NCBI GenBank assembly: GCA_900553945.1
Contig: USFR01000009.1
Span: forward strand, 3,070 to 67,069
Reading direction: 5' to 3'
DNA: 64,000 bases
From: an uncultured Clostridium sp.
GTDB lineage: Bacteria; Bacillota; Clostridia; TANB77; CAG-508
Part shown: piece by piece, positions 3,646-58,868 of the stretch
Numbering within the stretch: position 1 is the first letter of the stretch
Layout of the letters: every line of letters begins with the position of its first letter
Notes under the pieces: model-generated
Told to the model about the DNA's origin: nothing
The model's input: only the letters and a program-made list of their open reading frames with translations
Database searches by the model: none
Made by a program: the position numbers and the translations under genes

Positions 3646-5415
3646 TTATACAATTTTATATATAAAAAATGAAATTATGTATGCAATAATAAATTGGTTA
3701 AATATAATTTTTATTGCTTTTTTTATTCCAAATTCTTTTTTTATTATTCCTATAGTAGCTATGCAAGGAGTATACAATAATATGAAAGTTAAAAAGCTTA
3801 TAGCTGAGCTTCTAGTAAACATATTCCCTATTATAATCGGTAACATATTTGAGCTTGCATTTGTAAGAACGCTTAATGTGCTTAGTATTGCTTCTTTAGC
3901 AGAAATGCCAACTATAATTGATGTTGTAATTTTCCAGTCAGAAAATCCAAGTGGTTTGAATATAAATGAAACCTTTTGTCCAATCATTGCTAGCATACTT
4001 TCATTTTCAGGCACAAAAAACAATTCTTGGTTAAAGCTTTTCAAAAACCATATTATTAATGAAGCAATAAATATTACTGAAAATGATTTTATTAAAAATT
4101 CTTTTGTTTTATTCCACATAAGATGCCATGTATTTTTTAATGAGGGAATTCTATAATTAGGCAGTTCCATTATAAATGTTCCCTCATCATTTTTCCTTTT
4201 TCTGCCTACTAATGCTGTTACTGTTGTTCCAATTATTATTCCAACAGCATATATTAATGTCATTGCCATTGCTGGATTATCTTTAAAAAATATTGATACA
4301 AAAATCGCATATATTGGTATTTTAGCTGAACAGCTTATGAACGGAACTAATGTTAAACTTAAATCTCTTTCTTTTTCAGATTGTATTGTTCTAATTGAAA
4401 GTATTGCTGGTACCGAGCATCCGAACCCTAGTAAAATTGGTACTATGCTCTTTCCTGAAAGTCCTATTTTGCTAAGTGGCTTATCCATTATAAAAGCAAT
4501 TCTAGTCATATATCCGCTATCTTCTAAGATTGATAAAAAGAAATACAATGTTACAATTATTGGTAAAAAGCTAATAACACTTCCTATTCCATTTAATATT
4601 CCATCGATAATCAAGCTTTCAATTATCAAATTATATTCATGTGTTTCAAAATAGTAGATGATCATATTTGAAACGACTTCAATTCCTTGATTTAATAATT
4701 CTGTAAAATAATTTCCAATAATATTAAAAGTTAAATTGAAAATAATGTACATTATAAAAAAGAATATTGGTAATCCTAAAAATTTATTTGTTAAAATTTT
4801 ATCTATTTTATATGAGTTGTTTTTAGACATATTTCTTGGCATTTTTACTACATTGTTACATATGTTTTCTATTTGGCTATATTTCTCATTTATTTTATTT
4901 TGCTGTTTTAGATTTGGAATGTTAATGTTATAAATTCTTTTATTTTGGATTGCTTCATATATTAATTGTTCAGTTTCTTTTTTTGTAACTGTACTTAATT
5001 TAACAATTGGTAATTGCAGTATTCTTGATAATTCTTGAGTATTTATTTTTCCTTTGTTCTTCTCAACTTCATCTAACATATTAAGTGCTATAATCATTGG
5101 TATTCCAATTTCTTTTAATTGCATTGTTAAGTATAAATTTCTTTGTAAGTTAGTCGCATCAACTACATTAATTATTACGTCTGGTTTAACTTTATATAAA
5201 AAATCTCTTGTTACTTTTTCTTCGGATGTATATGTATTTAATGAATATAATCCCGGTAAATCAACTATTTTGCAATTCTTATAATTTGGCACTGTGCCAA
5301 CTACATATTCTACAGTTACTCCTGGGAAATTTCCAACATGTTGTTTTAGATTGGTTATTCTATTGAATATGGTTGTCTTACCGCAATTTTGATTTCCAAC
5401 TAAAGCTAATATCAT
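3646..5415 (-). CDS. feoB: Ferrous iron transporter FeoB
   Basis: 589 aa. N-terminal G-domain (GNQNCGKTTIFN, DLPGLYSL) followed by a polytopic membrane domain. Start overlaps the feoA stop. Confidence 0.95.
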   Translation of the reverse strand: MILALVGNQNCGKTTIFNRITNLKQHVGNFPGVTVEYVVGTVPNYKNCKIVDLPGLYSLNTYTSEEKVTRDFLYKVKPDVIINVVDATNLQRNLYLTMQLKEIGIPMIIALNMLDEVEKNKGKINTQELSRILQLPIVKLSTVTKKETEQLIYEAIQNKRIYNINIPNLKQQNKINEKYSQIENICNNVVKMPRNMSKNNSYKIDKILTNKFLGLPIFFFIMYIIFNLTFNIIGNYFTELLNQGIEVVSNMIIYYFETHEYNLIIESLIIDGILNGIGSVISFLPIIVTLYFFLSILEDSGYMTRIAFIMDKPLSKIGLSGKSIVPILLGFGCSVPAILSIRTIQSEKERDLSLTLVPFISCSAKIPIYAIFVSIFFKDNPAMAMTLIYAVGIIIGTTVTALVGRKRKNDEGTFIMELPNYRIPSLKNTWHLMWNKTKEFLIKSFSVIFIASLIIWFLKSFNQELFFVPENESMLAMIGQKVSFIFKPLGFSDWKITTSIIVGISAKEAILSTLSVLTNASSNMLPIIIGNMFTRSSAISFLTFILLYTPCIATIGIIKKEFGIKKAIKIIFNQFIIAYIISFFIYKIV

Positions 5416-5642
5416 AAAATCACCTCAACTTCTATTTTGCTTGCAATTTCTTTTCTTATGCTTAAGCTATATCCTCTTACTTCTATTTGAAGTGGATCTC
5501 CGAGTGGTGCTTTTTTGGTTAGCTTTATTTTTGTGTTTGGAACTATTCCCATATCTAGTAATCGGTATTTTAGCTCGCCTATCACGTTTACTGATTGGAC
5601 TTTACATATTTGATTTTCTTTTAAATTATTCAATGTCATCAT
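5412..5642 (-). CDS. feoA: FeoA-family iron transport protein
   Basis: 76 aa SH3-like FeoA pattern (RLLDMGIVPNTKIKL...PLGDPLQIEVRGYSLSIRK). 4-nt overlap with feoB. Confidence 0.85.
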   Translation of the reverse strand: MMTLNNLKENQICKVQSVNVIGELKYRLLDMGIVPNTKIKLTKKAPLGDPLQIEVRGYSLSIRKEIASKIEVEVIL

Positions 5643-5745
5643 GGTTAATTATATGTTGAGGCATTATGAATATGACTTTTTTACAGCTTATATAAATGCT
5701 AAAAGCGGTATGAATATTTTTCATCTTAACAACTTATATAAATAA

Positions 5746-5903
5746 AAAAGCAATATAAATATTTTTTGAAATCATCGCGCAACGACCAAAGGAACGAAGC
5801 AAGGCTTCGTGACTGCGATTGAAGCAATCTTTACTAAAGAAAGAGCGGATGCTCAAAAAAGATTGCGACAGCAAGATGTTTCAAAAATATTTATATTGCT
5901 TTT
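5746..5903. repeat. Hairpin-embedded intergenic element A (25-nt AT-rich arms, about 107-nt GC-richer core)
   Basis: Left arm aaaagcaatataaatattttttgaaa pairs with right arm tttcaaaaatatttatattgctttt. The core is homologous by eye to elements D and E. Confidence 0.6.
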
Positions 5904-5924
5904 GCTTTTATTTAAGTTTGTTTA

Positions 5925-6857
5925 TTATCCTAATAATTTTACTTCAACAGTATTCATTCTGTATTTTCCATTTTCATCTGTTCCAAATTCTATAAGTGAT
6001 TTGTCTAACTTTGTAGCATTTTGGCTTAAGTCTTGTGTGAAGTAAATTCTCATATTACTTATTTGTAGTCCTTTTGTTATTATTATTTTGAAGATTTCTA
6101 CCATATGTTTTTCATCTTCTGCTACTAATATAAGTTGAGGTGCTCTTTCATATCCAGAATCGAATTGAACAAAGTTTTCATAGAATTCTTTATATAACCT
6201 CATTCTTTCTTCGAATTTCGTTTCCCAATCTTCTTCTCTTCTAACAGCTTCATATATGAAATCTATTGAAACTCCTCTTTTTGTTAATCTAACTCCTGCA
6301 TTTGCTTTTATTATTTTTCCGCTTTGTTTAGCTGTTATTGCAGGTTTTACAACATAAGAATCAAATGCTTGTACTTTTCTCATGTATGCAATTATAATTT
6401 GGTTTCCAGCTAATCTTTTCTTTATCATTGATACTGGTTTTGTGTTGTCTGTTGGTTGCCATTTACATTCAATGTTTCTTGAATTTAATAAATATTTACC
6501 CATTTTTTCTAAGCAATATACTCTATATATGCATTTACCATCTTCGCTTGAAAAATAATATCTTGTTAATATTTTTGTTTTTATTAATTGTTCTAATTTG
6601 TTATTTAATTTATCTTGTGATTTTATATCAATATTTCTATGAACTAAAATTTGATATATTTGTCTTGATGTCATAAACTCAAATTCATTTACTAATTCTA
6701 ATATTTTAAAATGAATTTCTGTGATATGTCCTAAATTAATTCTATGAATAATTTGGTTTATTGAAACATATCCATCCTTTCCATCAAATGTTTTGATTTC
6801 TCCTTCTTTCATTGCGAAAGGAGAGACAGTTGTTTTGATTTTTTCATCTTCTACCAT
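5925..6857 (-). CDS. Replication-relaxation-family-like protein (wHTH N-terminus)
   Basis: 310 aa. The FKILELVNEFEFMTSRQIYQIL...KLEQLIKTKILTRYYF...YRVYCLEKMGKYLL layout resembles the plasmid/ICE replication-relaxation family. Recognition is from memory only. Confidence 0.4.
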   Translation of the reverse strand: MVEDEKIKTTVSPFAMKEGEIKTFDGKDGYVSINQIIHRINLGHITEIHFKILELVNEFEFMTSRQIYQILVHRNIDIKSQDKLNNKLEQLIKTKILTRYYFSSEDGKCIYRVYCLEKMGKYLLNSRNIECKWQPTDNTKPVSMIKKRLAGNQIIIAYMRKVQAFDSYVVKPAITAKQSGKIIKANAGVRLTKRGVSIDFIYEAVRREEDWETKFEERMRLYKEFYENFVQFDSGYERAPQLILVAEDEKHMVEIFKIIITKGLQISNMRIYFTQDLSQNATKLDKSLIEFGTDENGKYRMNTVEVKLLG

Positions 6858-7483: not shown

Positions 7484-8201
7484 TTATTTTAAAAGCTTTT
7501 GAACTTCGTCATCTTTTAGATATCTCCATTTTCCAATTGTTAATCCTTCTAAAGAAATTGTTCCAATTTTGCTTCTGTGTAATGCTAATACTTTTTTGCC
7601 TATTGCATCACACATTCTTCTAACTTCTCTATTTTTGCCTTCATGTATTACAATTTCAAGTCTTGTTTTATTATTTTCTTTGTCTTCCATAATTCTTTTT
7701 ACTTTAGCTGAACTAGTTTTAAATCCATCATCTAAAACAACACCGCTTCTTAACTTTTCAATTTCATCATCAGAAACTTGTCCTTTTAAAGTAACTGTAT
7801 AAGTTTTTGTAACTTCATTTTTAGGATGAGTTACCTTATAAACAAAATCTCCATCATTAGTTAAAATCAATGCTCCTGATGTGTACATATCTAGTCTTCC
7901 AACTGGTACAAGTCTTTCTTTTACATGAACTAAATCTGTAACTTTATCTCTACTAAATTGTTCCTTTACTGTTGTTACATATCCTATAGGTTTATTTAGT
8001 AAAATATATACTTTATTATCTTCTGGTTCAACTTTTCTACCGATTAAATTCAACTACATCTTTTTGTGGATCAACTTTAATTCCTAGTTCTGTCTTTGCT
8101 TCGCCATTTACCTTTACTTTACCTTGTAGTATAAGTTCTTCGCATTTTCTTCTTGAAGCTACTCCACAACTTGCTAAATATTTTTGTAATCTTTCTTCCA
8201 A
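7484..8201 (-). pseudogene. RsuA/RluB-family pseudouridine synthase split by a 1-nt frameshift between the S4 and catalytic domains
   Basis: The S4 domain (TTG 8201 to TAG 8037: [53 protein letters not shown]) is in one frame. The catalytic domain (8053-7484: VYILLNKPIGYVTT...GRLDMYTSGALILTNDG) is in another. The two overlap by 17 nt. Confidence 0.75.
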
Positions 8202-13552: not shown

Positions 13553-13802
13553 TTTTTTAATTTAAGTCTTTTCAAATGAGTGCAATTTATTTATATTTAT
13601 AAAGTATAAAAATTCCCCAAGCATTGAAGTTAACCAAACTAGTCTTGCTTCACTACTTGGGGATTTTTTCTATACTAGAAAAGTTCTCTGAACTTCCTAT
13701 TATAGAAAAATGATAATGCATAGGAATTTGCAAACCAAATTTCGCGCACGAACAAAAACACGTACTAAAAAAATGCAAATATTATAAATGTCCGCTTTTG
13801 TT

Positions 13803-13943
13803 CTAAATAACTCCTACTTTTCTTGCAAATTGTTTGCCCTTTTTTATCATTTTATTTTTTGTTGTTCTGTTCATATCTTGATATAACATCATTGCAGCTA
13901 CAGTTGCTACTGAGCCTATTACAGCACCTTTTACAAATTTCAT
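13803..13943 (-). CDS. Small hypothetical protein (46 aa), translationally coupled to the TSUP gene
   Basis: Not in the track (under 60 aa). MKFVKGAVIGSVATVAAMMLYQDMNRTTKNKMIKKGKQFARKVGVI. RBS aggaggg lies 7 nt upstream, and its ATG overlaps the TGA of the upstream ORF (ATGA). Confidence 0.45.
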   Translation of the reverse strand: MKFVKGAVIGSVATVAAMMLYQDMNRTTKNKMIKKGKQFARKVGVI

Positions 13944-16002: not shown

Positions 16003-16025
16003 ATTTTACCTCCTAATTCAAAAAA

Positions 16026-16143
16026 TAAACTTCGTCTTACTTCGTTAAACTTCGCATCAAAAATCCTCAACGTACCTTTGTACGCTTCCGGTTTTTTCGC
16101 TTGTTTGCCTTGTAATACTCGTTTTTTTTCTGAATTTCTATCA
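16026..16143. repeat. Intergenic element B carrying the conserved 39-nt core (16068-16106)
   Basis: The core AAAAATCCTCAACGTACCTTTGTACGCTTCCGGTTTTTT recurs at 18385-18425 and 18530-18569. The outer arms ttcaaaaaataaa and ttttttttctgaa pair imperfectly. Confidence 0.6.
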
Positions 16144-18341: not shown

Positions 18342-18466
18342 GAAAATGAATGAGAATGGCGGATTGCTGTGTTAAAAGCCCTATAAAAAATCCTCAACGT
18401 ACTTATGTACGCTTCCGGTTTTTTTAGGGCTTTTGCCTTGCTCTCCATCCATTCTCATTCATTTTC
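18342..18466. repeat. Element C1: nested triple hairpin around the conserved core
   Basis: The outer 18-bp stem gaaaatgaatgagaatgg/ccattctcattcattttc encloses aaaagccctataaaaaa/tttttttagggctttt. That stem encloses the core tcctcaacgtacttatgtacgcttccgg. The element starts right after the asnS stop. Confidence 0.7.
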
Positions 18467-18523
18467 CAGTGCCTTCTTGGATTTTCGCGCTCTTTTTGCT
18501 TTCATTTGATTCTGGTTTTATTA

Positions 18524-18603
18524 CCCTATAAAAAGTTCTCAACGTGCTTATGTACGTTTCTGGTTTTTTAGGGCTTGCCTTGCTCTCCATCCATTCTCAT
18601 TTC
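18524..18603. repeat. Element C2: partial tandem copy of C1
   Basis: ccctataaaaagttctcaacgtgcttatgtacgtttctggttttttagggcttgccttgctctccatccattctcatttc repeats the core and right half of C1, with about 4 mismatches in the 28-nt centre. Confidence 0.7.
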
Positions 18604-18669
18604 TTTTTCAGTGCCTTTTTTATTCCTCGTCATTATTATTTTATGGAGATTATATTTTTCTTGTGAATT

Positions 18670-25775: not shown

Positions 25776-26124
25776 TGGTGGAGATGAGGAGAGTCGAACT
25801 CCTGTCCAGAATTTCATCCATATAAACTTCTCCGAGTGCAGTTTGTTATTATTTCTCATTCTAAAAAAGTTAACAAACAAACTTGTTTAGAACATATCTT
25901 CTAAAATCCCTTTATTACCGAAGAAATAATAAATTCGTTTCCTACTAATCGGCGCCTTATCTAAAGCCGTAGGTTGCTAAAGTAAGACGTTGCTGCAATT
26001 AGGCAGCAAATGCTAATTCGTTATTATCAGCGTTTATTTTTAATTTGTACCTTTTTAGGTGGCCAGGTACGTCCACCACTCGCTATCTATACTTCAAAAA
26101 AGCTGTCGAAACCTTTACATCCCC
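25776..26124 (-). ncRNA. ssrA: tmRNA (SsrA)
   Basis: On the minus strand the 5' end is GGGGATGTAAAGGTTTCGACAGC and the 3' end is CAGGAGTTCGACTCTCCTCATCTCCACCA. The internal tag frame GCT GAT AAT AAC GAA TTA GCA TTT GCT GCC TAA encodes ADNNELAFAA. Confidence 0.93.
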
Positions 26125-26893: not shown

Positions 26894-26982
26894 GCAGGTG
26901 TGGCGGAATTGGCAGACGCACAGGACTTAAAATCCTGCGGGACCTAAATCCCGTATCGGTTCGACTCCGATCACCTGCACCA
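26894..26982 (+). tRNA. tRNA-Leu (anticodon UAA), CCA encoded
   Basis: The acceptor stem gcaggtg/cacctgc, the anticodon loop cttaaaa, a long variable arm and the T-loop ggttcgactcc are all present. It ends in acca. Confidence 0.93.
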
Positions 26983-50751: not shown

Positions 50752-51099
50752 ATGATTAAGGAAAGAAATATCGTTTTATGTATTCTTTTGTCAATTATAA
50801 CATGTGGTATTTATGGAATCTATTGGTTCTGTACTTTAACTGATGATACAGCAAGAGCTAATGATGATCCAGACTTTTCAGGAATAAAGTCTCTTATATT
50901 CGCAATAATTACTTGTGGTATTTATGGACTATACTGGAATTATAAAGTTGCAAAAGAAGTATATGAAGCTGGACAGAAAAAAGGATTAGCAATTAGTGAT
51001 AATTCTGCAATTTGTTTAATTTGTTCTATATTTGGACTTGCAATAATAACTTATATTCTAGTTCAATCAGACTTAAACAAGATTGCACAACAACAATAA
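50752..51099 (+). CDS. DUF4234-like membrane protein
   Basis: 115 aa with the duplicated motif TCGIYGIYWF / TCGIYGLYWN. Confidence 0.7.
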   Translation: MIKERNIVLCILLSIITCGIYGIYWFCTLTDDTARANDDPDFSGIKSLIFAIITCGIYGLYWNYKVAKEVYEAGQKKGLAISDNSAICLICSIFGLAIITYILVQSDLNKIAQQQ

Positions 51100-51100
51100 T

Positions 51101-51454
51101 ATGCTATTGACTTTATTTTTAGGAATTCTAGTTATATTGCTTATGTATATATTGGGAATTCCTTGTTTTTTTTATAAAATAACTAATTTCTATTGTCCAG
51201 GTTGCGGATTTACACGTGCTGTATTTGCACTATTGCACCTTAATATATATCAAGCTCTTAGATATAATGTACTAATAATAATTTATATACCACTTATTTT
51301 ATATTGTATTTTTTACAAATTTATTTTAAAAAGAGATTGTCAGATTTCGAATTTAATTTTATACATAATTCTTATTTTAGTTTGTTTATTTGGAATATTG
51401 CGAAACATTCCGTATTTTAGTTACTTGGCACCTACTGTTGTTTCAACAATTTAA
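51101..51454 (+). CDS. DUF2752-like membrane protein
   Basis: I use the ATG at 51101, just after the upstream stop. The CPGCGFTRA motif is present. Confidence 0.7.
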   Translation: MLLTLFLGILVILLMYILGIPCFFYKITNFYCPGCGFTRAVFALLHLNIYQALRYNVLIIIYIPLILYCIFYKFILKRDCQISNLILYIILILVCLFGILRNIPYFSYLAPTVVSTI

Positions 51455-51455
51455 A

Positions 51456-51578
51456 AAAGAAACTCAATATGAAAATTTTTTCACACCTTACTGCTCTGTA
51501 TTCTACCTGCTTCAATCGAACTCACTTCGTTCGTTTGCCATTGTGCGGTGATTCGAAATTTTTATATTGAGTTTCTTT
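51456..51578. repeat. Hairpin-embedded intergenic element D
   Basis: Arms aaagaaactcaatatgaaaattt and aaatttttatattgagtttcttt pair with 1 mismatch. They enclose a 77-nt core that aligns by eye with the reverse complement of the element A core. Confidence 0.6.
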
Positions 51579-51588
51579 GTATGTTTTA

Positions 51589-52317
51589 TTAAATTAATTT
51601 TTCAACTTTATAGTCTTTTTCTAGTTTTTCATTAAAATAAATTCTGGTGATTAGTTCAAATTCTTTTAATGCATTTTCACTTATTGAAAATGAAAATAAT
51701 TTTTTTGAATCTGCTTTTAAGCTATATATAATTGCATACTTACTTCCTTCTGATAAATTTATTGCACTTTTGTCTTGCTTACTACAAACTGAGCATTTAA
51801 ATCCATCATCTTTTATGCTAAAAGATGATAAGTCTTCTTTTTCTCCACAACATACGCATTCATTAACATTGGGTGAGTAACCTAGTATTTTTAACAATCT
51901 CATTTTGAATACTGATATTATGAAGTCTAAATTTTTATCGCTTTCTGAAATTACATATAGTGTGTTTAAAAATAATTTTAATATGTAATAATTATTTTGA
52001 TTTTCGGTTGTTACGTCTGTTATTATTTTTATCAATGTTGCTGCATAGTTTAGTTTTTCTAAATCTACTCGTATATTGTAAAATATTTCTACAGGATCAC
52101 AGCTTTGAATTGTATATAAATCATTTGATTTTCTCAAAACATACTCTCCAAAGCATAGTAGTTGTGATCCTGCAAGTAACATACTTTTAGGCCTTTTTGC
52201 TCCTTTGGCTACACATGAAATTTTTCCAACGTTTGGTGTTAAGATTGTTAATATTTTATCTGAGTCTCCTAAACTGTTTTCAGCAATTACTATTCCGGTT
52301 GTTTTTATACTTTTCAT
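51589..52317 (-). CDS. recO: DNA repair protein RecO
   Basis: 242 aa. OB-fold N-terminus and a CxxC...CxxC zinc motif (CVCCGEKE...FKCSVCSK). era-yqzL-recO synteny. Confidence 0.88.
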   Translation of the reverse strand: MKSIKTTGIVIAENSLGDSDKILTILTPNVGKISCVAKGAKRPKSMLLAGSQLLCFGEYVLRKSNDLYTIQSCDPVEIFYNIRVDLEKLNYAATLIKIITDVTTENQNNYYILKLFLNTLYVISESDKNLDFIISVFKMRLLKILGYSPNVNECVCCGEKEDLSSFSIKDDGFKCSVCSKQDKSAINLSEGSKYAIIYSLKADSKKLFSFSISENALKEFELITRIYFNEKLEKDYKVEKLI

Positions 52318-57793: not shown

Positions 57794-57948
57794 CCTTCCT
57801 AATATTTCTTCTATGTTTATATATATTCAATTGTTAGAGAAATATTACTTTTATTATTGAAACTTATGAATAGGAAAAATACATATCAAAATTTTATATG
57901 TATTTTTCATTTTATCTTTTGCAATAATGGTTATATTTAAATTCGAAA

Positions 57949-58079
57949 GAAAAAGAAAATTATATTTATTTTTTGTTCCTTGCTAAAAGATTTTACCACT
58001 CCTTAAACTTCGTTTAAGCGTTAGGTAAAAACTTTCAAACTGCGCGTCACTAAAAAATCAAATATAATTTTCTTTTTGC
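57949..58079. repeat. Hairpin-embedded intergenic element E
   Basis: Arms gaaaaagaaaattatatttatttttt and aaaaaatcaaatataattttctttttgc pair. The 77-nt core shares the CCTTGCT, ACTTCGTT and CTGCGCGTCA blocks with A and D. Confidence 0.55.
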
Positions 58080-58088
58080 TAACAAATT

Positions 58089-58868
58089 CTATCTTACAAA
58101 TTCATCTAAACTTTTAAACTCATACCCATCAGATTTAATAGCCCTAATACACTCATCCAAAATATTCATATTATCCTTTGAAGTACCATGAAGCAACATA
58201 ACCTCTCCAGGATGCGTATTATTCAATATCTTCTCCTTACCGTAAGATTCTCTACCTTGCTTATTCTCATCCCAATCATCATATGCAAAAGACCACATTA
58301 TTGTCTGATAATTCATTTTATTACATAAAGCTAATGTCCTTTCGCAGTATTCCCCTTTAGGTGGTCTTATGTATTTCATTTCATATCCAAACTTTTCATA
58401 TACAGCTGTATGCAAATTCATAACTTCTTTTTCAACTTCAGAATCTGAAATCTCTGGCATGCTTTTGTGATTAACAGTATGGTTTCCAACATCATGCCCT
58501 TCTTCTATCATTCTTTTAACTATGTCAGGCTGAGTATTTAAATAATGAGCTGTAATAAAAAAACATGCCTTAACATCATTTGCTTTTAGGGTATCTAATA
58601 TATTTTCCGTATATCCTGCTTCATATCCTAAATCAAATGTTAGGTATATATATTTCTTTTCTTTACTTCCCATCGCTATTCCATTGTATTTGTCAATTAA
58701 TTCTCTATTTTCTTTTCCTAAATCAGGTTGCTCATGGTTGTTGTTTCTTTTTATTCCCCAACATATTTTCTTATTAATATTATCTGCACGTACCTCATTT
58801 TTTAAGACACCCACACATAATACTAATGAAAAAATAACAGCTATACTCAAAACAATTTTTTTATTCAT
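58089..58868 (-). CDS. Polysaccharide deacetylase, PdaA-like (spore cortex delta-lactam type)
   Basis: 259 aa. Signal anchor, then YLTFDLGYEAGYT..ILDTLK...VKACFFITAHYL and GNHTVNHKSM NodB motifs. Confidence 0.75.
   Translation of the reverse strand: MNKKIVLSIAVIFSLVLCVGVLKNEVRADNINKKICWGIKRNNNHEQPDLGKENRELIDKYNGIAMGSKEKKYIYLTFDLGYEAGYTENILDTLKANDVKACFFITAHYLNTQPDIVKRMIEEGHDVGNHTVNHKSMPEISDSEVEKEVMNLHTAVYEKFGYEMKYIRPPKGEYCERTLALCNKMNYQTIMWSFAYDDWDENKQGRESYGKEKILNNTHPGEVMLLHGTSKDNMNILDECIRAIKSDGYEFKSLDEFVR

Follow-up and report, generated by a model that had tools for sequence, protein, structure and literature searches.

Two related families of small palindromic repeats in terminator-like positions in uncultured low-GC gut Clostridia

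Three intergenic palindromes, here called A, D and E, raise the question of what kind of element combines long inverted arms, which had been described as different at each site, with a centre that had been described as shared. They lie in a window of 64,000 nucleotides, which is the whole stretch of DNA analysed here, and protein look-ups found the proteins of this window in hundreds of human-gut assemblies. An earlier note, made from the letters of the window, had offered two readings: a small mobile or duplicative element that inserts into the loops of pre-existing terminator-like palindromes, or an old structured element of RNA or DNA with co-varying stems and a conserved loop. Our analysis suggests, with a probability of about 0.6, that these three sites belong to two related small non-coding palindromic repeat families which have spread by duplication. 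Both families appear to be undescribed and are restricted to a single lineage of uncultured low-GC gut Clostridia.

The three palindromes and their cores

Inverted arms were recovered at all three sites, with lengths of 23–36 nt and a complementarity of 89–96% (Table 1). The enclosed cores are, as had been claimed, richer in G+C than their surroundings, with 46% in A, 46% in D and 37% in E against 25–33% in the window, whose minus strand carries most genes. Folds of the whole elements are far more stable than those of shuffled sequences (z -5 to -8).

Table 1. Coordinates of the repeat elements, their neighbours and other features (window positions unless a locus is named)
Feature	Position	Strand	Description
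Element A	5731..5918	-	type-1 A/D member; arms ~5731-5771 / 5879-5918; core 5772-5878, minus-strand reading CATCTTGCTG...TTGCGCGATGA
Inverted repeat of A	5731-5766 / 5883-5918		36 nt, 89% complementary, gap 116 nt
Neighbours of A	stop at 5925 (310-aa gene)	-	A lies downstream of the 310-aa gene and upstream of feoA-feoB; these genes are all on the minus strand
Element D	51456..51578	+	type-2 A/D member; arms 51456-51481 / 51553-51578; core ~51484-51550
Inverted repeat of D	51456-51478 / 51556-51578		23 nt, 96% complementary, gap 77 nt
Neighbours of D	51083..51454; 51589..52317	+; -	small gene and recO, a convergent pair
Element E	57949..58079	+	E-family member; core 57975-58052
Inverted repeat of E	57950-57974 / 58053-58077		25 nt, 92% complementary, gap 78 nt
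Neighbours of E	58089..58868	-	E lies downstream of this polysaccharide deacetylase gene and upstream of yabP-yqfD
Core-less hairpin	57869..57913	no strand	A/D-type arms alone (GAAAAATACATATCAAAATTTTATATGTATTTTTC); inverted repeat
Family B, single copy	16037-16097
Family B, tandem copies	18364-18424 and 18509-18569
Family F sites	13700-13830; L013 4084-4182, 17101-17189; L017 1977-2090; L084 ~4360-4460
Palindrome	44894-44999		21-nt arms, 95% complementary, 64 nt apart; self-complementary over 108 nt
tmRNA gene	25776-26124	-
tRNA gene	26894-26979	+

The cores of A, read on the minus strand, and of D, read on the plus strand, align with z = 4.9 locally and z = 5.6 globally; in the shuffled control that the earlier note had proposed, this similarity was matched by none of 1000 dinucleotide shuffles. 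No similarity was found when the two cores were compared in opposite orientation. The claim that all three cores align thus stands for A and D and falls for E, since pairwise alignments of the E core with A or D are not significant (z -0.4 to 1.2). The profile HMM of the A/D family described below gives no match to E either, and BLAST among the three cores yields an 11-mer as its sole match. Among the blocks that had been listed as shared, CTTGCTG and TGCGCG-TGA are real shared ends, but homology of ACTTCGTT is not demonstrable.

Element A is kept in nine strains and absent from strain L010 (L numbers denote the loci compared), and it is 74–79% identical over 150–210 nt, arms included, to copies in L017, L026, L031 and L068. 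Short open reading frames differ among A, D and E and between the two types of A/D core. A plus-strand frame through A looks protein-like, but it is kept neither in D nor in the type-2 consensus copies, and a coding reading was therefore rejected.

Between A and the middle of the window, a second pseudouridine synthase gene (7484–8200; L001 1657–2374) is called as two overlapping ORFs in all strains seen, a 54-aa S4 domain and a 189-aa catalytic domain, and represents either a conserved frameshift or a split gene. Beyond the tmRNA and tRNA genes, the region at 27–29.3 kb contains many inverted repeats and could be an integration hot spot.

Copies, arms and positions of the two families

Copies beyond the window, for which the earlier note had suggested a search with the shared blocks, were sought in one genome per bacterial species with the pattern CTTCAATCG N{4,24} CTTCGTTC N{6,14} TGYGCG. 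Of the 57 stretches obtained, 42 lie in five low-GC Clostridia MAGs, in detail 20 in CAKPEG01, 17 in USQZ01 (UMGS1994), 3 in CAKOXT01, 1 in CAKPDW01 and 1 in a sheep MAG; the remaining 15 are scattered single matches in unrelated genomes with 46–65% G+C. A profile HMM that included 32 nt of either arm gave 53 matches across the related loci. In the window it recognizes A (5908–5746, E = 1.9e-25) and D (51454–51578, E = 6.3e-21), both at nearly full profile length, and nothing beyond these two.

Individual copies measure about 125–190 bp and consist of AT-rich arms, A-rich in the outer left and T-rich in the outer right part, around an asymmetric, G+C-richer core with small hairpins. Two types of A/D core can be distinguished. 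Type 2, to which D belongs, has the layout AAAGAAAAATACATATCAAAATTTTTTCA / CACCTTGCTGTCGCATTCC - variable AT-rich hairpin - GGTAGAATGCTTCAATCGAACTCACTTCGTTCGTTTGGTCCCTGCGCGGTG / ATTCAAAAATTTTATATGTATTTTTCTTTTT; the loop of the variable hairpin sometimes holds a further nested palindrome, and according to the family alignment D has lost this internal hairpin by deletion. Type 1, represented by A, has GCAATCT..GAGCC-hairpin-GGCTC..AGATTGC and an extra hairpin ACGAAGCTTTGCTTCGT. The family alignment further shows that the arms vary and that the 3' half of the core is nearly invariant, which suggests a sequence-specific constraint not accounted for by purely selfish spread. At L058 3560–3900 a type-1 copy is duplicated in tandem; an upstream ORF crosses its left arm and ends in the core, so that the element provides C-terminal codons and the stop.

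The copies of E were found at about 20 places among the A/D-bearing loci and are 83–95% identical. Element E is self-complementary over 135 nt and forms an imperfect palindrome from end to end. It has in common with A/D the motif CCTTGCT inside one arm and CTGCGCG inside the other, and nothing else. In the window TGCGCG occurs three times on both strands, every time inside a repeat element, and CTGCGCG once. E belongs to a second family, related to A/D through the end motifs. At no fewer than 12 loci a copy of E lies at most about 150 nt from an A/D copy, in all four relative orientations, and the window repeats this composite, as E adjoins the core-less hairpin at 57869–57913. A putative outward promoter in E (TTAGCA, 16 nt, TATAAT; minus strand) was discarded: such matches are at chance level here and the orientations of E do not favour it.

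Other palindromic repeats are also present. A site at 13725–13780 and an element B, which had been taken for weaker relatives of A, D and E, belong to other families, F and B, with no detectable A/D membership. Family B has the core AAAAATCCTCAACGTACNTNTGTACGCTTCCGGTTTTTT and is found at 16020–16130 and 18342–18640 of the window, with relatives in L030, L040, L048 and L060; its first tandem copy lies within perfect 18-nt arms (GAAAATGAATGAGAATGG/CCATTCTCATTCATTTTC). Family F carries TTCGCGCGC/CTGCGCG, TTAAAAATGTTATAAT and TCCGCTTTTGTT and varies in presence between near-identical genomes, being found in L017 and not in L022. Between the hibernation-factor gene and the next operon it is present in L084, L086, L089 and L090 and absent from the window and L083. 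The long imperfect palindrome at 44894–44999, upstream of the gene at 45057, has no relatives among the related loci examined.

Arms of A/D copies have a median length of 28 nt and those of E copies of 25 nt. The inner 17–20 nt of the A/D arms read CATAT(Y)AAAATTTTTTCA across more than 30 loci, most outer parts read AAAGAAAAAT, and the E arms read AAAAGAAN-ATTATATTTATTTTTTG. The arms do vary from site to site, as had been stated; A, D and about 30 more copies are nevertheless variants of one consensus and not unrelated sequences. This shared consensus, the HMM matches that span the arms and the restriction of core-less arms to one locus show that the arms belong to the repeat and are not pre-existing terminators.

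Changes in one arm are matched by changes in the other. In the E alignment 96.9% of the cells are paired, and double changes occur in 15 of 43 pairs, compared with 6.5 ± 1.5 in shuffles and five or fewer when the partners were slid; 11 of these 15 fall in the arm helix. The outer 8 nt of an arm pair at 7.19 of 8 positions with their own partner; when arms from different copies are combined, the value is 4.82 of 8 (p < 0.0002). As G.T and A.C mismatches in the arms are equally frequent (17 versus 18), there is no sign of selection for pairing on one RNA strand. Some outer arms depart from the consensus and are still perfectly complementary (GCACCAAT/ATTGGTGC in L034, TAAGGCA/TGCCTTA in L019, CGAATGGGAT/ATCCCATTCG in L058). 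Such stems would be compatible with the entry of an element into a short stem already in place; they may derive from earlier short terminators or from outward growth of the palindrome.

In the outer arm regions, A on the left and T on the right each make up 50% of the bases, compared with a background of 35–36%. Soon after the right arm a tail of the type TT(T/G)C(A/T)A(T/A), most commonly TTTTGCAAT, follows in about 13 of 34 A/D copies and 13 of 20 E copies. Since this tail is common to both families, the repeat unit may reach asymmetrically past the arms. The form TTTTGCAAT(A/T)A after the T-run of the right arm was noticed at many copies of both families, for example at 57913–57925 of the window and in L028, L037, L041, L050 and L057.

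With regard to genes, 27 A/D copies with both neighbours lie 9 times between convergent genes, 8 times in tandem contexts in the same sense, 9 times in tandem contexts in the opposite sense and once between divergent genes; the corresponding numbers for E are 5, 4, 6 and 1. Placement is thus terminator-like and without orientation bias. The distance from an A/D core to the nearest stop codon is often 30–60 nt, into which, with median arms of 25–28 nt, a separate terminator would hardly fit, if at all. Like intrinsic terminators, the copies lie behind stop codons and have a T-rich tail; the enclosed "loop" of 64–145 nt departs from the 3–8 nt of the canonical form, and a consensus terminator scan did not call these sites. 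Given the succession of A-run, long stem and T-run, the copies most likely act as bidirectional intrinsic terminators or 3'-end hairpins of the flanking genes.

Loss and reversal of the core and rearrangements at the repeats

The hairpin at 57869–57913 permits a comparison of arms with and without a core. L074, L078 and L081, which belong to the same species, have a full type-2 core here, and the window, L076 and L082 lack it; altogether the deletion allele is found in 7 assemblies of the species (among them the window, L076, L077, L079, L080 and L082). In filled alleles the core is bordered by AAAATTTT on both sides (CATAT-AAAATTTT-[core]-AAAATTTT-GATATG), and a single AAAATTTT is found in the empty allele. 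Filled alleles occur in two diverged haplotype backgrounds within the species, in UMGS1994 (L093), a sister species whose flanks are 90–94% identical to the window, and in L097 (a JGI contig). The identity of the L093 flanks also serves as the baseline of divergence, as the MAG pieces compared contain no shared genes. Because the site is filled on two haplotypes and in a sister species, the empty form is a deletion and not an unused target, and the hairpin can be read from its junctions as a type-2 remnant whose core was secondarily lost between two AAAATTTT microhomologies.

Core-less A/D arms were encountered at one locus only in about 450 kb of related sequence, namely at 57869–57913 and its orthologues in L076 and L082. 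A comparison of empty with filled palindromes, which the earlier note had envisaged as a test of insertion, therefore yields no unused target palindromes, the single core-less locus being derived by deletion. An 8-nt flanking repeat is seen only where the arm contains the self-complementary AAAATTTT; copies without such a stretch have no flanking direct repeat.

In UMGS1994 (L093) the orthologous E has the same arms and flanks and a core in the opposite orientation, with alignment scores of 82 direct versus 135 flipped. The central hairpin of E also differs between the species of the window and UMGS1994 in the manner of a subfamily, so that the site may, instead of having simply inverted, have been converted by another, oppositely oriented copy; the observation is thus one of core inversion or replacement. 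As E is in one orientation in all 8 assemblies of the window's species, the flip is a rare evolutionary event and not phase variation. One metagenome scan for a flip within the species gave two further contigs, both in the orientation of the window.

Larger rearrangements are also found at the repeats. In strain L010 (3934–6400, corresponding to window 5415–5925) four extra genes, encoding a NUDIX protein, two unknown proteins and AAA_17, replace A; this island lies between the 310-aa gene and feoA, and an ordinary terminator, AAAGAGCGACTTGCAATGTCGCTCTTTTT, stands as a direct repeat at its two ends. Behind recO, L085, L091 and L011 have other genes in place of the D-bearing segment, which L013 and L015 lack. 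L043 and L057 diverge beginning exactly at an arm, and L034 and L065 have one arm and its flank in common and not the other. Neither A (L010) nor D (L011, L013, L015, L085, L091) nor the locus pairs L028/L037, L060/L070, L017/L022, L043/L057, L019/L028 and L068/L069 provided a clean empty site for a complete element; the polymorphic comparisons at A, at D and in these six pairs are replacements, rearrangements or too diverged.

Beside D, at 50752–51454 of the window, two small membrane-protein genes lie on the plus strand, one of them with a DUF4234 match. They make up a cassette, variable among strains and species, that lies between recO and the ribosome hibernation factor gene; the cassette site holds other genes in L085, L091 and L011 and none in L013 and L015.

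Origin of the repeats and comparison with known classes

The first reading of the earlier note is retained as far as a small duplicative element is concerned, with 42 copies of A/D and about 20 of E, and is not supported as regards a core that enters pre-existing terminator loops. Were the core alone mobile and the arms target DNA, this would account for identical arms with and without a core at 57869–57913, for outer 8 nt that are complementary locus by locus, for those off-consensus outer arms which resemble short terminator stems flanked by A and T runs, for palindromes nested within the type-2 internal hairpin and for elements clustering side by side. However, more than 30 loci share the conserved inner 17–20 nt of the arms, core-less arms are limited to one locus in about 450 kb, and the empty allele there is derived, the site being filled on two haplotypes and in the sister species. 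With the 8-nt flanking repeat also limited to arms containing the self-complementary AAAATTTT, we regard mobility of the core alone as unlikely. Of the second reading, the co-varying stems around a conserved centre are confirmed by the double changes in E (15 of 43 against 6.5 ± 1.5), but not a function as RNA. A structured RNA family, be it of 3'-UTR cis elements or of small RNAs with a functional conserved centre, would agree with the strong covariation in arms and inner stems, the nearly invariant 3' half of the A/D core, the invariant T.G pairs in helix 3 of E, which would pair on one strand only, and the fold z-scores of -5 to -8. It is made quite improbable by the lack of orientation bias in tandem contexts (8 versus 9 for A/D, 4 versus 6 for E), by the balance of G.T and A.C mismatches in the arms (17 versus 18), by the opposite E cores at one locus in sister lineages and by the deletion of one core, with the deletion allele in 7 assemblies of the species. 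Rfam, against which the earlier note had recommended a covariance-model scan, contains no family that the repeats match: at gathering threshold the window gave the tmRNA and a tRNA only, and at permissive E-values A and three loci with consensus copies gave nothing relevant.

The flipped E core, with its arms in place, might also suggest sites of a site-specific recombinase, similar to an inverton or a cassette-exchange system, at which the core is flipped or adjacent cassettes are exchanged. The variable segments bordered by elements (A versus the L010 island, D and the variable genes after recO, L043 versus L057), the single arm and flank shared by L034 and L065, and the fixed place of variable but matched positions in the arms point in the same direction. 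Invertons, however, are marked by both orientations in one population and by an invertase; here the orientation of E is single in 8 of 8 assemblies of the window's species, the A/D copy beside E has the same orientation in 6 of 6 filled assemblies, sister species included, no invertase is nearby, and no recombinase gene is present in the annotated flanks. As repeats are in addition generic hot spots for homologous rearrangement, we hold such sites to be very improbable. A chance resemblance among unrelated long-loop terminators in an AT-rich genome, which would be in line with the non-significant pairwise comparisons of E with A or D and with the lone 11-mer among the cores, is refuted by the alignment of A with D (z = 5.6), by the 42 A/D copies and by the roughly 20 copies of E at 83–95% identity, and deserves practically no weight.

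A more speculative possibility, to which we assign a low probability, is that the core is the recognition module of a recombinase that places hairpins into the single-stranded tips of other hairpins, possibly acting on single-stranded DNA. If this were true, a core with CCTTGCT/CTGCGCG ends would be recognised, the targets would include the loops of terminators and of earlier copies, and insertion at hairpin tips would explain the nested palindromes, the locus-specific outer stems and the composites of E and A/D. Transposition would then be targeted by structure and not by sequence.

According to the preferred reading, that of two duplicatively spread repeat families, the copies would have multiplied as non-autonomous DNA, catalysed in trans by some enzyme, and would have come to occupy the terminator position in either orientation, with an enrichment between convergent genes, where they would now work as bidirectional terminators or 3'-end hairpins. 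Arm-to-arm recombination, gene conversion or template switching would probably keep the arms complementary, and selection for arm pairing may contribute too. Such interactions between arms would also yield the inversion of the E core, or its replacement in opposite orientation, between sister lineages, as well as the core deletion between AAAATTTT microhomologies that left the bare hairpin at 57869–57913. A search for a parent element in about 450 kb of related sequence found no pair of end motifs enclosing more than about 150 nt and no orphan motifs. The annotated flanks of the copies contain no transposase or recombinase, in keeping with the earlier statement that no transposase is nearby. 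Likewise, blastn searches with a consensus A/D copy and with E against phage and plasmid collections gave no match, and neither did two pattern scans of viral contigs.

Among the closest known repeats, the ERIC/IRU elements of enterobacteria are imperfect palindromes of about 127 bp that lie in transcribed intergenic regions in either orientation and are conserved across species, with length variants arising by internal insertions and deletions (see also the MITE review PMC10969869). E resembles them in being palindromic from end to end, and A/D in having, as types 1 and 2, a variable internal hairpin. They differ in phylum and sequence and in that the ends of ERIC are conserved, whereas the outer stem here is locus-variable. 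REP and REPIN sequences are extragenic hairpin repeats, often located behind genes and present in tens to hundreds of vertically persistent copies, which are mobilised in trans by a single-copy RAYT transposase (Y1) whose gene is usually flanked by repeats. A GTAG in the type-2 core (GGGTAGAATGC) is reminiscent of REP. The present repeats are not REPINs, because REPINs have conserved inverted REP arms and a variable spacer, the reverse of repeats in which the arms are most and the centre least variable; in the annotated flanks, which are 8-kb MAG pieces, there is no Y1 transposase.

The BOX, RUP and SPRITE repeats of S. pneumoniae are over-represented between genes that converge, form clusters and insert into each other; SPRITE has the appearance of an unusually large Rho-independent terminator with AAAA/TTTT at its ends, and no empty site or target-site duplication could be established for it (Croucher et al. 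2011, PMC3049150). They agree with the repeats described here in being Firmicute, non-coding, shorter than 200 bp, able to fold into stem-loops, present in tens to about 100 copies per genome and situated near 3' ends (PMC3049150). There is, however, no sequence similarity, and in the present repeats a stem of 25–28 bp surrounds a conserved, asymmetric, G+C-richer core of 65–145 nt, the stem and not the centre being the part that varies, with compensated changes. As a further difference, defined terminal inverted repeats and target-site duplications are known from BOX and RUP (PMC3049150). Classical MITEs (Correia, Nezha, Chunjie, QMITE) are small, non-coding and multicopy, possess terminal inverted repeats and give rise to size variants by internal deletions (PMC10969869). 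A size of 123–190 bp without coding capacity, terminal inverted repeats and 20 and 17 copies in two MAGs are in agreement with MITEs. The definition does not apply in full because neither a target-site duplication nor a parent insertion sequence can be shown, and immediately outside the conserved part the flanking sequences are complementary in inverted order instead of forming direct repeats. We therefore describe the families as MITE/REP-like repeats in terminator position, which resemble known interspersed repeats; on present evidence they are not a new class of genetic system.

The host lineage represents prevalent, uncultured gut Clostridia, in which these repeats are an unannotated feature. 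They mark borders of strain-variable gene segments and break short-read assemblies, several contigs of one MAG ending within copies. With profile models of the families it would become easier to annotate MAGs, predict terminators and type strains in this group. A conserved centre between fast-changing, matched arms makes the repeats a case for studying how complementarity is kept up, by conversion or by selection, and the same design is suited to the study of how long inverted repeats are lost or flipped. For their hosts, the repeats probably supply the predicted 3'-end hairpins of many genes.
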